This document shows positions 26,095 through 44,735 of a DNA stretch of 64,000 nt, piece by piece. A program made the position numbers and the translations under genes. Every line of letters starts with the position of its first letter. Within the stretch, counting starts at the first letter, position 1. Source of the DNA: Escherichia phage vB_EcoM_G2469; the sequence record MK327934.1, one strand, 5' to 3'. The notes beneath the pieces were generated by a model. It worked only from the letters and a program-made list of their open reading frames with translations. It did no database searches and was not told the origin of the DNA.

Positions 26095-26133
26095 GATAGG
26101 ACTACTATAACATAGTCCTATCAAGATGTAAAC
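26095..26133 (-). promoter_or_regulatory. early-promoter cassette: GTTTAC -35, -10 inside the palindrome GATAGGACT-N10-AGTCCTATC
   Basis: Plus gataggactactataacatagtcctatcaagatgtaaac; small ORFs start at 26074 downstream. Confidence 0.45.
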
Positions 26134-26366
26134 TACCGATTATGTTTTAAATGTTGATAAAGTTCTTCAACTTGTTTAGGGTCCAAAACAATTAGGTCAT
26201 TTTCTTGGCGAAGATAAATCCATCCCTTATCTCCAGGACCATTTTTACAAAACATCACCACCATATCATCATCTTCAGCGCTTTCAGGTAAAAGTTCAAG
26301 TACACCGTCTTCAGATTTTCCAGTATAATCGTAAAGCATAATATCCTCACATAATCTCGTTAACAT
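26133..26366 (-). CDS. hypothetical protein
   Basis: 77-aa ORF. Confidence 0.45.
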   Translation of the reverse strand: MLTRLCEDIMLYDYTGKSEDGVLELLPESAEDDDMVVMFCKNGPGDKGWIYLRQENDLIVLDPKQVEELYQHLKHNR

Positions 26367-26526
26367 ACATTTGCAATTCGGTGTGGGCGTCAGCCATCTT
26401 TTTCATAGCTCTGTTAATGTCGATGTCTCCATCTTCGCAACCATGAGCATTTTCCCAATCAGATACCGCATTAGCGTACTCTTCAATCAAAAACATTAAC
26501 TTAGAAATTTTTTCTTTACGTGACAT
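26347..26526 (-). CDS. hypothetical small protein (start MSRKEKISKL)
   Basis: ATG at 26524-26526 preceded by a GAGGAGAA RBS; the longer track ORF begins inside the promoter. Confidence 0.4.
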   Translation of the reverse strand: MSRKEKISKLMFLIEEYANAVSDWENAHGCEDGDIDINRAMKKMADAHTELQMYVNEIM

Positions 26527-26593
26527 AACGTTCTCCTCTAGTAAGTAAGGTTTACTATAACACAACCTGAGGAGAAGTAAACTGATAGATGCC

Positions 26594-26621
26594 AAAAAGC
26601 CCCGACCTTTCGGAAGGGGCT
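26594..26621 (-). terminator. intrinsic terminator (minus strand)
   Basis: Plus aaaaagccccgacctttcggaaggggct: GC-rich stem with GAAA loop followed by a U-run on the minus strand. Confidence 0.65.
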
Positions 26622-26627
26622 AGTAAA

Positions 26628-26930
26628 TTAGATAGATGTAGGCTCTAATTTTATTTTCATGAACTCGGCAAATTGTCTGGCAGTTTTTATGCCTTGTTCA
26701 TGACATTCAAATGCATCATCACAGGGACTATTTTTGTAATGCTTTGCCATATACTTATAGAATTTTTCAGAATTCTCGACATTTTGAATTTCAAACAAAG
26801 TATATACGTTTTTAATCCCTGATTCCATAAAGTTATCAAAATATGGGTCGATATATGCAGTACCAACGATAGGAGTTGTTGCTGCAAAAAACCCCAGCAT
26901 CGCCATGACAGCTATCGCTCTTAAGGCCAT
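26628..26930 (-). CDS. secreted protein, function unknown
   Basis: 100 aa with signal peptide MALRAIAVMAMLGFFAATTPIVGTA. Confidence 0.5.
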   Translation of the reverse strand: MALRAIAVMAMLGFFAATTPIVGTAYIDPYFDNFMESGIKNVYTLFEIQNVENSEKFYKYMAKHYKNSPCDDAFECHEQGIKTARQFAEFMKIKLEPTSI

Positions 26931-26942
26931 ATAGGCCTCCTG

Positions 26943-27155
26943 TTAATTTTGGCCAGTATTTATTTTTCGCCTTTGGACGGCCTTAACATCTGTGAGGTAT
27001 TTTTCCAGCTTGCGCTTGCGTGTATAATCAGCTTTAGAACCAGTTTGACGGATATCCTCGTTTAAATGAGAAATAGAATGTCCTAATTCTCTTCGGATTT
27101 CATCCAATTGGGTTACAGTAAGATTACGAAGTTGTCTTTCGTTTAATTGCTGCAT
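26943..27155 (-). CDS. hypothetical protein
   Basis: 70-aa ORF. Confidence 0.4.
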
Positions 27156-27182
27156 ATATACCTCTTGGTTAGATATTAGTAT

Positions 27183-27764
27183 TTATAACAACCCTGTCAA
27201 ATCGTTCCAATGCTTCCGGCATAATGACACATATCTATCGGTATCACCAATTTCAATTTGACTGCCATCTGTAATTGGAAGTCCGTCTTCCGTGACTCTA
27301 GCTACCATTGTGGCCTTTTTACCGCAATGACAGACACCTTTAAGTTCAACAAGCTTATCGGCAATAGCCATTAATGCTTGAGAACCTTCAAATAGATTAC
27401 CTTTAAAATCTGTTCGTAGTCCATATGCCATTACCGGCACATTGTATACGTCAACAATACGACTAAGTTGATACACCTTTTCAGTAGTTAAGAACTGAGC
27501 TTCGTCAACAAATACGCAGTGAATATCCTTTTGTGCTGCAGCCCATTTATAGAATTCAAAGATATCCATGTCTTTTGTAATTATATTGGCGTCCTGACGA
27601 ATACCAATACGAGAGACTATTTCACCTTTTGAATCGCGAGTATCAATAGCCGGTTTAAGAACTAATACACCCATGCCACGTTCTTTATAGTTATGTGCGG
27701 CAGTAAGTAATGAAGCAGACTTACCAGCGTTCATAGCGGCATAGGTAAAAATTAAACTAGCCAT
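27183..27764 (-). CDS. tk: thymidine kinase
   Basis: 193 aa, P-loop YAAMNAGKS, C-terminal CHCGKKA...CRKH zinc motif. Confidence 0.9.
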   Translation of the reverse strand: MASLIFTYAAMNAGKSASLLTAAHNYKERGMGVLVLKPAIDTRDSKGEIVSRIGIRQDANIITKDMDIFEFYKWAAAQKDIHCVFVDEAQFLTTEKVYQLSRIVDVYNVPVMAYGLRTDFKGNLFEGSQALMAIADKLVELKGVCHCGKKATMVARVTEDGLPITDGSQIEIGDTDRYVSLCRKHWNDLTGLL

Positions 27765-27773
27765 AAGAGTCCC

Positions 27774-27956
27774 TTATAGTGAATTCACGTAGTCAATGAG
27801 TTCTTGTTCTTTCCTGTCAAATGATTCCAACAATGCTTGATATTCTTCGTCCGTCAAAGGAGCATATTCATCATACGCATTGGTGGCTGCTTGCTCATCC
27901 AATAGGTCATGGATAAGTTCAAACAGTTTAGTTTTCTCTTCTTTAGTCAATTTCAT
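27774..27956 (-). CDS. hypothetical acidic protein
   Basis: 60-aa ORF. Confidence 0.4.
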   Translation of the reverse strand: MKLTKEEKTKLFELIHDLLDEQAATNAYDEYAPLTDEEYQALLESFDRKEQELIDYVNSL

Positions 27957-43138: not shown

Positions 43139-43156
43139 ATTTTCCTCACTTAAAAT

Positions 43157-43233
43157 TGGTCGAGACAGAAGGATTCTAACCTTCAACCTACGGATTAGAA
43201 GTCCGTTGCTCTATACAATTGAGCTATGCCTCG
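43157..43233 (-). tRNA. tRNA-Arg (anticodon UCU)
   Basis: Hand fold of minus strand CGAGGCA-TA-GCTC...GAGC-A-ACGGA-CTTCTAA-TCCGT-AGGTT-GAAGG-TTAGAAT-CCTTC-TGTCTCG-A-CCA; 7-bp acceptor stem, encoded CCA. Confidence 0.75.
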
Positions 43234-43333
43234 ATGATGCGGCTTTGGGTGTTTCAGTGTTACTCGTTTGTAGGTTCTACTTTTAACCCTTATTCGAACA
43301 ACTTACCTACCTAAGAGCGTACTCACCGCGAAT

Positions 43334-43408
43334 TGGTGGCCCTGGCTGGTTTCGATCCAGCTACCTATCAGTTATGAGCTGACAGCTCTCCCATTGAGCT
43401 ACAGGGCC
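43334..43408 (-). tRNA. tRNA with CAU anticodon (Met, or Ile if C34 is modified)
   Basis: Hand fold GGCCCTG-TA-GCTC-AATGGGA-GAGC-T-GTCAG-CTCATAA-CTGAT-AGGTA-GCTGG-ATCGAAA-CCAGC-CAGGGCC-A-CCA. Confidence 0.7.
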
Positions 43409-43504
43409 TAAATAACTTTCTATTATGAAAGGCACTTGAGGGAGCACCTTTGGTAATAGAGGGTAGATTAATAATAACACATAATTCTTAAAGCAAATTA
43501 CGTT

Positions 43505-43795
43505 TTACCGTACCATATTAATGTAGTTATATTCAATGCAACGTAATTTCAAAGGGTTCTTGAAAATATCATATTCAAGAGGGCCTTTTTCTGTTTCAAT
43601 AAAGAAATCAAAGTTAACTGTGTTAAATTTAACGTCTTCACAGAGTAATTTAACTTGTGAAGATGAACGGTCGATATAAACCTTTTCAACCTCAAAGATA
43701 GTCAGAATACCGTAGTCATTAACCAGTGCTTTAGCTGCACGTTGGTCGCTTTCATATCCGTTCTCAATGGACGATACTTTAGCATAAAGAATCAT
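43505..43795 (-). CDS. hypothetical protein
   Basis: 96-aa ORF. Confidence 0.45.
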   Translation of the reverse strand: MILYAKVSSIENGYESDQRAAKALVNDYGILTIFEVEKVYIDRSSSQVKLLCEDVKFNTVNFDFFIETEKGPLEYDIFKNPLKLRCIEYNYINMVR

Positions 43796-44154
43796 GAATG
43801 TTCCACCATTTCAAAGGTATGAGCATCAACAATATGATACCAGTCAAAATTTTCTTCCGCGTTTTTATAAATTTCGCGAAGAGCTTCAACAGTTTTTCCT
43901 GTAGCAACAAGATCGTCAATACCACCAAGAGGATAACAGTAATAACCAGCAAACAGAAGGAAATTAATAGTTTCTGTAGGTTCTGGATGCAGAACACCGT
44001 TATCATCTACCACTTCAAAGAAAGTGTAAGAAGGAGTACAAGTTTTAATCCAAACCCATGCTTGGGCTGCTGAATCAAATGGTCTGCGTATCAAACGACA
44101 ATCAGGGTCTTTAGAAGGATTTGCGTCAAAATCTGCATATACATGATATTTCAT
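43792..44154 (-). CDS. hypothetical protein
   Basis: 120-aa ORF. Confidence 0.5.
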   Translation of the reverse strand: MKYHVYADFDANPSKDPDCRLIRRPFDSAAQAWVWIKTCTPSYTFFEVVDDNGVLHPEPTETINFLLFAGYYCYPLGGIDDLVATGKTVEALREIYKNAEENFDWYHIVDAHTFEMVEHS

Positions 44155-44361
44155 TTACTCACCTTTTGCAATTTTATCCATAACGATAGCGATTAAGCCG
44201 ATTAGAAATGCTACTACCAATGAGATAGAATTTTCTGTTGTTGTCAGTAGTCCACAAATGAATCCTACAAACATCGAAAAACTAAAAGCCATTGAAGCAA
44301 TTACTACAGCAACATTACGAATCAGTTCAGCGCGTTTCATTTTATTTCTCCATTTACTCAT
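44155..44361 (-). CDS. hypothetical membrane protein
   Basis: 68 aa, two hydrophobic helices. Confidence 0.45.
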   Translation of the reverse strand: MSKWRNKMKRAELIRNVAVVIASMAFSFSMFVGFICGLLTTTENSISLVVAFLIGLIAIVMDKIAKGE

Positions 44362-44409
44362 TTGTTTTGATAGGACTACTATAACATATCCCTATAGGCT
44401 TGTATACCT

Positions 44410-44673
44410 TTATTTCAAATATATTGCGTATTTTTTATAGCCACCAGGCTCGTGTCGAAGACCTTTATCATTCGCAAAACGTTGAATGTTATTGAACTGA
44501 TTTTCATCAAGTTCGGATGTGTCAAATACGAAAAAGTTTCGTTTGTTACCAAGCGTGATATGCGGAGTTAAGTCAATGTTATACAAATTAAGAATATCAG
44601 CAATAACCTGATTGACCGCTTTGTTAATTTTCACACCAGATGATTCTGAGATGAATTCGTTGAAAGTTTTCAT
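44410..44673 (-). CDS. internal-protein-like small protein
   Basis: Start MKTFNEFISES (CTS-like). Confidence 0.45.
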   Translation of the reverse strand: MKTFNEFISESSGVKINKAVNQVIADILNLYNIDLTPHITLGNKRNFFVFDTSELDENQFNNIQRFANDKGLRHEPGGYKKYAIYLK

Positions 44674-44696
44674 TTTAGGTTCCATTTGGTTGTTTT

Positions 44697-44735
44697 GATA
44701 GGACTACTATAACATAGTCCTATCGTGTTGTAAAT
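44697..44735 (-). promoter_or_regulatory. early-promoter cassette with perfect palindrome GATAGGACT-N10-AGTCCTATC
   Basis: Plus gataggactactataacatagtcctatcgtgttgtaaat. Confidence 0.45.

Follow-up and report, generated by a model that had tools for sequence, protein, structure and literature searches.

Upstream of several minus-strand early genes of Escherichia phage vB_EcoM_G2469 (sequence record MK327934.1; the window analysed here is the whole stretch of 64,000 nucleotides), a short promoter cassette recurs whose -10 element is enclosed by a palindrome, and the question raised by this locus is what a palindrome does at such a place. A sequence-only reading of the window had proposed an operator for a dimeric DNA-binding regulator, or a signal coordinating a regulon. 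Our analysis leads elsewhere: the palindrome belongs to a type of element published before, the promoter-early stem-loop (PeSL), with the -10 sequence in the loop, and the cassettes are probably PeSL-type regulatory cassettes of an RB69-like T4-type phage, so that the finding is explained by a known architecture in a phage of this group and not by a new operator or regulon.

The recurrence itself is real. The motif GATAGGACT-N10-AGTCCTATC, allowing up to three mismatches, has five matches in the window against 0.02 expected, a number reached in none of 100 shuffles; the matches start at 26095, 36962, 38257, 44369, and 44697 and contain 0, 2, 1, 3, and 0 mismatches, respectively. These are five of the six best copies originally listed, the sixth of which (41115) retains only the -10 element and the 3' arm, and the copy at 44369 pairs poorly. 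Similarly, the dyad around the -10 element stands, but its arms, first described as 9 bp long and separated by N10, in fact measure 10 bp and are separated by 8 nt, GATAGGACTA-N8-TAGTCCTATC, extending to 12 bp at 26093-26124.

On the minus strand, the order of elements in each copy is an A/T-rich tract, GTTTAC (or ATTTAC/GTATAC), an 18-nt spacer ending in TGT, TATAGT, AGTCCTATCAAAAC, GGAG, and ATG; the cassettes have GGAG or GAGG, then ATG within 25-35 nt. A generic sigma-70 scan ranks the cassettes among the top-scoring sites of the region, as TTTACA-17-TATAGT with the TG extension, and this arrangement, with A-rich sequence upstream, is seen at all six cited sites. Each cassette is a strong T4-type sigma-70 early promoter with its leader, in agreement with the initial assignment of a GTTTAC -35 element and an extended -10 element on the minus strand. 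Relative to the promoter, the 5' arm occupies positions -25..-16, within the spacer, and the 3' arm, positions -7..+3. The latter region (TA..C.TATCAA) is kept in nearly all copies and occurs with no 5' arm at 41155, 23145, and 41739; the 3' arm belongs to the general consensus of promoter and start site. Motif searches found no copies of the dyad away from promoters.

Does the dyad exceed what a bare promoter consensus would produce? To define the sites, we used only features other than the arms, that is, a -35 element with at most one mismatch, a -10 element, and a downstream Shine-Dalgarno sequence and start codon, which yielded 19 sites in the window and 23 in T4 (1-100 kb); the T4 RefSeq and GenBank records lack promoter features, and the T4 promoters here are these pattern-picked sites. 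The promoter spacer was compared with the stretch from the end of the -10 element to the Shine-Dalgarno sequence, with 4500 random positions from the same genomes as controls. A perfect complement of at least 7 bp was found at eight out of 19 promoters in the window and eight out of 23 in T4, compared with 6.7% of random positions, and a complement of at least 10 bp, at four out of 19 and five out of 23, respectively, compared with 0.22%. Inverted repeats enclosing the -10 element are enriched at early promoters.

The pairing also has a preferred geometry. We anchored 139 distinct arm-blind sites on the -10 hexamer and paired the ten positions from -16 to -25 with those from -7 to +3, which puts the dyad axis at -12/-11. 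In this register, at least seven of the ten pairs are Watson-Crick at 23 of the 139 sites, compared with 0-5 sites in 14 shifted registers, and at least nine of the ten at 14 sites, compared with 0-1. The 23 paired sites contain 18 different 5' arms, each complemented by its own 3' arm. In the full set, diluted as it is by sites with no hairpin, 51.2% of cells are paired versus 46.5% after shuffling, and the covariation score is 0.252 versus 0.197, neither value being equalled in any of 500 shuffles; by both measures the true register beats every register slid by 1-3 columns. Strong enrichment, a single register, and covariation bear out the earlier impression that the dyad is more than a promoter consensus.

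The arms are far from uniform: at one and the same position, the window has at least four unrelated families of arms (GATAGGACTA, GAGAGCA, GAGAGA, and ATGATG), and T4, at least five (e.g., GACAAGACTA, GACAAGATTA, TGATGAGGTA, and ATAGGGT). Within a genome, the two arms change together, GACAAGACTA/TAGTCTTGTC versus GACAAGATTA/TAATCTTGTC in T4 (sites 20612 and 57990) and GAGAGCA/TGCTCTC versus GAGAGA/TCTCTC in the window (sites 40870 and 11706), with GGGACCA/TGGTCCC in the same cassette context in JS98. The comparison with T4 early promoters, suggested by the sequence-only reading, gives a matching consensus and different hairpin arms at orthologous sites. The T4 mobD.2 promoter, a positional orthologue of the first cassette of the window, has 14-bp arms of wholly different sequence (AGTTGACAAGATTA/TAATCTTGTCAACT); the T4 ipI, ipII, and 20612 promoters carry yet other arms, those of ipI, orthologous to the site at 45112, being TGATGAGGTA/TACCTCATCA. 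At the orthologous promoters of T4 (mobD.2, ipI, regB, and denV), the hairpin is kept and the arm sequence has changed. The same is seen between other orthologues, locus L039 having GGTAGGATTA/TAGTCCTACC where the window has GATAGGACTA/TAGTCCTATC, with QL01 and COW86c alike in pattern. An arm-blind scan of IMG/VR (GTTTAC-N15-TGTTATAGT) identified T4-like contigs with further pairs of arms, among them GGTAGGAAG/CTTCCTACC, TAGGGTC/GACCCTA, TAAGGGTC/GACCCTTA, and GATAGGGCTA/TAGCCCTATC; a separate scan with a strict pattern returned four loci. Taken across four genera, unrelated arms share the same dyad register; what relatives conserve, a point on which the sequence-only reading had made its own proposal depend, is the pairing and not the sequence.

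These data bear directly on the proposed operator, that is, on the possibility that GATAGGACTA-N8-TAGTCCTATC is bound by a dimeric phage or host protein that lies over the -10 element and co-regulates the promoters, e.g., shuts them off. Five to six near-identical 10-bp dyads centred on -12/-11 of strong promoters, with the same arm sequence recurring in distant genera, speak in favor of such a protein, and the shut-off of T4 early promoters after 2-3 min has been described as unexplained (Hinton 2010, PMC2988021; Uzan & Miller 2010, PMC3014915). Binding by one protein, however, requires one half-site per genome, its sequence conserved and the arms free to vary alone, and does not require joint change of the arms, and these expectations fail: within one genome, many unrelated arm sequences occupy one register; the arms change jointly, as independent half-sites would not; orthologous promoters keep the pairing and lose the sequence; the 3' arm stands with no 5' arm at the three sites listed above; tolerated mismatches are of the G·T type only; and no copy lies away from a promoter. 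The sequence comparisons make an operator extremely improbable. A regulon signal fares no better, given the many arm sequences at one position and the occurrence of the 3' arm by itself. Also very unlikely is a narrower version, in which a phage or host factor aiding early-promoter shut-off additionally recognises the GATAGGACTA-N8-TAGTCCTATC subfamily, either its DNA or its structure.

Could the palindrome have no function of its own, the copies being recent duplicates or gene-conversion products of one cassette that was self-complementary by chance? The copies, 5-8 in a genome, are 80-100% identical over about 70 bp, and PeSLs have been proposed to spread through recombination (PMC2839356; PMC4122927), both of which would suit this explanation. 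It is at odds with the dyad register shared by unrelated arms in four genera, with the frequent compensatory double changes and the covariation above shuffles, and with the excess of complements of at least 10 bp, present at about 20% of promoters and 0.22% of control positions, and hence we consider it very unlikely. If the cassettes are of the PeSL type, the near-identity of copies would reflect paralogous spread and recombination of the cassette. In line with that, a query of 101 nt matches 1136 places in 288 phage records (5-8 in each Mosigvirus genome), and the cassette core adjoins different genes in Tequatrovirus SH7, Erwinia phage COW86c, Dhakavirus QL01, Acinetobacter phage Berthold, and Escherichia phage W70, and its presence beside unrelated genes is consistent with a mobile or recombining cassette.

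Phage W70 (OP778610, about 40468-40535) is rV5-like (Vequintavirinae) and not T4-like, and carries a nearly identical cassette consisting of GTATAC, GATAGGACTA tgt TATAG TAGTCCTATC, aaaacaaatgaggag, and ATG. The match to the window is limited to the 68-bp cassette (92.6% identity), the flanking genes being unmatched, which suggests that the promoter cassette itself has moved between unrelated myoviruses.

If the pairing is selected, does it act in RNA or in DNA? The predicted RNA stems are 10-11 bp long with a 6-nt loop, GUUAUA, and free energies of -14 to -19.5 kcal/mol; the fold z-scores are between -2.5 and -6 at 26133, 44735, 38295, and 37000, and not significant at 41155 and 44407. In a conditioned test, the -10 element and the 3' arm were held fixed (TGTTATAGTAGTCCTATC), and 19 distinct cassettes from a metagenome scan and the earlier loci were compared, with equal opportunity for both outcomes (four internal positions each for transitions giving G·T and A·C). 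Within the 5' arm, the internal changes comprise A>G (two positions) and C>T (one position); each of the three yields G·T on the promoter strand, and they occur in at least seven distinct sequences. With the 3' arm fixed, A·C changes were seen at none of the four possible internal positions in the 19 cassettes, one terminal base excepted. This bias provides moderate evidence that the pairing is selected in the RNA of the promoter strand.

The bias has to be weighed against an action of the dyad in DNA, where the inverted repeat, extruded from supercoiled or single-stranded DNA as a cruciform or hairpin, would expose the -10 element in a loop and tune promoter opening, or create a preferred site of recombination. 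Here the fixed register, whose axis coincides with the upstream border of the transcription bubble, is favorable, as is the DNA hairpin, equally stable on both strands (-9.6 and -9.9 kcal/mol; z-scores -4.7 and -5.5). Moreover, recombination between PeSL cassettes of RB49 and phi1 gave mini-circles, with crossovers mapped in or next to the stem-loop (PMC2839356). However, pairing in DNA would not be expected to favor G·T over A·C on the promoter strand; 10-bp stems with an 8-nt loop extrude poorly; promoters with no 5' arm retain the full promoter consensus; and the fixed register needs no DNA-level cause, because the bases of the extended -10 element are constrained and this register forms the tightest loop around them. 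Overall, we regard action in DNA as unlikely.

The favored explanation, a PeSL-type stem-loop acting in RNA, can be spelled out as follows. The 5' arm (-25..-16) would have evolved to complement a 3' arm already bound by the promoter consensus. The predicted start lies inside the 3' arm; because transcription from the cassette's own promoter would start there, the RNA hairpin can come only from promoters further upstream, and we infer that a stem-loop of 10-11 bp, with a 6-8 nt loop containing the -10 sequence and about -17 kcal/mol, would form and act only in this read-through RNA. With the cassette packed as a unit (promoter, short A-rich leader, GGAG, and ATG) in a gap of about 50 bp, the hairpin would most likely mark or insulate the cistron boundary. 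It could attenuate read-through, like one RB49 PeSL stem; it could protect the 3' end of the upstream message, leaving the downstream ribosome site open; or, as an insulator, it could maintain access to GGAG and the A-rich leader. The 3' arm of the GATAGGACTA cassettes extends to +3, and GGAG begins about 10 nt past it. Should transcript mapping bear this out, gene-by-gene insulation of tandem strong early promoters in T4-type phages would become directly testable.

A Rho-independent terminator was considered and ruled out, as no T-run follows the stem, which contains 3-4 G-C pairs; the bases next to it are AAAACAAA on the minus strand and AAGATG on the plus.

Several observations weigh against the read-through hairpin. 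A perfect palindrome folds alike on both strands and as DNA, so that stability by itself does not decide between the two levels. The general test of stem extensions over all promoter-like sites, comparing G·U with A·C, gives 50 versus 36 overall and 19 versus 1 in T4, but 7 versus 7 in the window; a clear asymmetry emerged only with the 3' arm held fixed. The terminator scan flags no cassette, and no U-tract follows the stem, so that attenuation by canonical intrinsic termination is unlikely. Several copies work with no 5' arm, and hence this arm is dispensable for promoter function. The start site and read-through in G2469 are predictions from the sequence. Finally, the stems of PST/T4 were placed "just upstream" of the promoter (PMC4122927) and not around the -10 element.

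The individual copies, all on the minus strand, illustrate both the regularity of the cassette and its variation. Cassette 1 (26073..26133), before a mobD.2-like open reading frame (ORF), has the -35 element GTTTAC at 26128-26133, overlapped by the TAG stop of the upstream ORF, the 5' arm GATAGGACTA at 26113-26122, TATAGT at 26104-26109, and the 3' arm TAGTCCTATC at 26095-26104, followed by the predicted +1 at about 26097, GGAG at 26082-26085, and ATG at 26073-26075; its RNA fold is predicted at -19.5 kcal/mol (z-score -4.1). The mechanical ORF call places the start of the mobD.2-like gene at an ATG within the leader (26087); the PHROG alignment and the position of GGAG indicate the second ATG (26075) as the true start. 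Cassette 2 (36962..37000) has the -35 element at 36995-37000, the arms TATAGGACTA (36980-36989) and TAGTCCTACC (36962-36971), and the -10 element at 36971-36976; its stem is 8 bp long (nine pairs in the predicted fold; -14.0 kcal/mol, z-score -2.5). Cassette 3 (38257..38295) has the -35 element at 38290-38295, the arms GATAGGGCTA (38275-38284) and TAGTCCTATC (38257-38266), and the -10 element at 38266-38271, with one G·T pair in the stem (-16.1 kcal/mol, z-score -3.5). Cassette 6 (44697..44735), before the gene for an internal head protein, has ATTTAC at 44730-44735, GATAGGACTA at 44715-44724, the -10 element at 44706-44711, and the 3' arm at 44697-44706 (-16.9 kcal/mol, z-score -6.0).

The remaining two cited copies are degenerate. 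Cassette 4 (41117..41155) consists of the promoter and 3' arm only, with ATTTAC at 41150-41155, the -10 element at 41126-41131, and the 3' arm at 41117-41126; the place of the 5' arm (41135-41144) is taken by the TAA stop of the upstream ORF, there is no palindrome, and the fold is not significant (z-score -0.65). Cassette 5 (44369..44407), with GTATAC at 44402-44407, a degenerate 5' arm TATAGGGATA at 44387-44396, the -10 element at 44378-44383, and the 3' arm at 44369-44378, pairs poorly (z-score -0.63).

Among the looser variants noted earlier, the one near 21630 is indeed palindromic, and those at 23105, 23385, 33200, and 41700 have the promoter and the 3' arm consensus but no real 5' arm. 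The former (21636..21670) has GTTTAC at 21665-21670, AGGTCTA at 21657-21663, TATTAT at 21642-21647, and TAGACCT at 21636-21642; its central pair shows a compensated change from A-T to T-A, and the stem lies in another register (-18.1 kcal/mol, z-score -3.4). A second family of cassettes (aaactctt..gagTATAAT..gttggataataaa), in the same register as the main one, is found at 40835-40870 and 11671-11706, and in JS98 at about 39466. The copy at 40835..40870 has ATTTAC and the arms GAGAGCA (40850-40856) and TGCTCTC (40835-40841) with TATAAT at 40841-40846, in the register of cassette 1 (-14.0 kcal/mol, z-score -3.6). Its paralogue at 11671..11706 has a compensated stem, GAGAGA (11687-11692) and TCTCTC (11671-11676) around TATAAT (11677-11682), whose fold by itself is not significant (z-score -0.72). 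The ipI promoter (45077..45112) has GTTTAC at 45107-45112 and the arms ATGATG (45095-45100) and CATCAT (45077-45082) around TACTAT (45083-45088). One stem register for all variants is ruled out, the stems at 21670, at 45112, and in T4 ipII using other registers.

At three further early promoters on the minus strand, the hairpin reaches the ribosome site, the 5' arm lying within the promoter spacer and the 3' arm over the Shine-Dalgarno sequence. The regB promoter (30185..30235) has a 14-bp hairpin with the 5' arm TTCTCCTCTAGTTG at 30216-30229, the -10 element at 30207-30212, and the 3' arm CAACTAGAGGAGAA at 30185-30198, which covers the Shine-Dalgarno sequence (-21.6 kcal/mol, z-score -3.5); the T4 regB promoter has a compensated equivalent of 15 pairs. 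The denV promoter (33932..33985) has a 10-bp hairpin that sequesters the Shine-Dalgarno sequence, with the arms TTCCTCCAAG (33970-33979) and CTTGGAGGAA (33932-33941; -17.8 kcal/mol, z-score -3.3), and in T4 the denV arms are TCTCCTGTAG/CTACAGGAGA. The third such promoter (26531..26582) has an 8-bp stem formed by TTCTCCTC (26569-26576) and GAGGAGAA (26531-26538). In the regB and denV orthologues of T4 and JS98, the pairing is retained via compensatory changes. For regB and denV, the ribosome site would be hidden only in read-through transcripts, and the read-through copies would be translationally silent. A general rule in T4-type phages, by which early promoters nested in the 5' strand of a hairpin silence read-through regB and denV, is more likely than recognition of the arms by a factor; if true, it would extend to early genes a mechanism documented for late genes only.

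The setting of the cassettes is that of a plastic early region. The window shares about 98-99% identity with a group of T4-type phages of Escherichia and Shigella; the closest record with checked taxonomy, vB_Eco_mar005P1 (98.4% identity), is classed as Mosigvirus (RB69 group). By the annotation of the latter, the cassettes fill gaps of about 50 bp between small co-oriented minus-strand genes, from mobD.2 through the interval between e and the tRNA genes to the internal-protein locus. The stop codons of upstream genes overlap the -35 element or lie 2-13 nt before it, and, apart from one internal head protein, the genes downstream fall into PHROG families without a known function. Two tRNA genes (43160-43233 and 43337-43408) lie on the minus strand within this early region, flanked by the cassettes at 41155 and 44407; they were the sole Rfam matches, with no RNA family found at the cassettes. 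At 40180-40197, there is a G+C-rich hairpin (GGAGGACTCCGGTCCTCC) followed by T-rich sequence on both strands, which looks like a bidirectional intrinsic terminator, unlike the stems of the cassettes.

Four known systems may be compared with the cassettes. Sites of LexA- or lambda-type repressors resemble them in having a dyad centred on the core promoter at several promoters; however, the arm sequence in the window is not common to the promoters of one genome, and the arms covary. The T4 early promoters have "additional regions of consensus", treated as contacts of RNA polymerase (Hinton 2010, PMC2988021, whose text does not contain the phrase "inverted repeat"). The cassettes share with them the UP-like A/T tract, GTTTAC, TGn, and the -10 element, and the conservation of -7..+3 is this kind of extra consensus; the difference is that the 5' arm in the window is optional and covaries with the 3' arm.

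The T4 genes e, soc, 49, and I-TevI are subject to promoter-in-hairpin translational control, which these reviews describe for late genes only (PMC3014915; PMC2988022). As in these cases, the promoter of the cassettes lies within the 5' strand of a helix, and the structure is expected only in transcripts started upstream. The promoters at 30235 (regB), 33985 (denV), and 26582, with the Shine-Dalgarno sequence sequestered, are of this type, differing from the known cases in that the latter involve late promoters and genes. The GATAGGACTA cassettes are not, as their 3' arm ends at +3 and the Shine-Dalgarno sequence is free.

The closest likeness is to PeSLs, described in RB49 and phi1 as a repeated unit in which an AT-rich tract and a sigma-70-like early promoter are combined with a stem-loop and with the Shine-Dalgarno sequence and start codon of the gene that follows (Arbiol 2010, PMC2839356), and later extended to PST/T4 and nt-1/KVP40 (Comeau 2014, PMC4122927). 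In RB49 and phi1, the stems, G-T pairs included, are mostly between the -35 and -10 elements or extend over the -10 box; the cassettes border ORFans in hyperplastic regions; and in a lacZ fusion one RB49 stem cut expression about as much as the rrnB T1 terminator (PMC2839356). All sequence-level defining features of PeSLs are present in the window: the sigma-70-like early promoter with its AT-rich upstream tract; the Shine-Dalgarno sequence and start codon at the 3' end and the stop of the upstream gene at the 5' end; a predicted stable stem-loop within or next to the promoter at four out of six cited sites (41155 and 44407 being degenerate); and numerous conserved copies in each genome, next to small ORFs without a known function in plastic regions, including the internal-protein locus. 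The PST/T4 promoter consensus TTTACW-N17-TAYWAT fits, and the frequent stem pattern AGNA-loop-TCNT (PMC4122927) fits AGGA...TCCT of the window. In contrast to the described PeSLs, the stems in the window are AT-richer, with no polyG/polyC or U-tract, and are locked to one register, with the arms at -25..-16 and -7..+3; terminator activity is known for the one RB49 stem only, and Mosigvirus lies outside both papers. Going somewhat beyond these two studies, our analysis adds stems enclosing the -10 element in one fixed register across several genera, compensatory evolution with a G·U bias that points to RNA of the promoter strand, and the Shine-Dalgarno sequences of early genes (regB and denV) lying inside hairpins that would form only in read-through transcripts.

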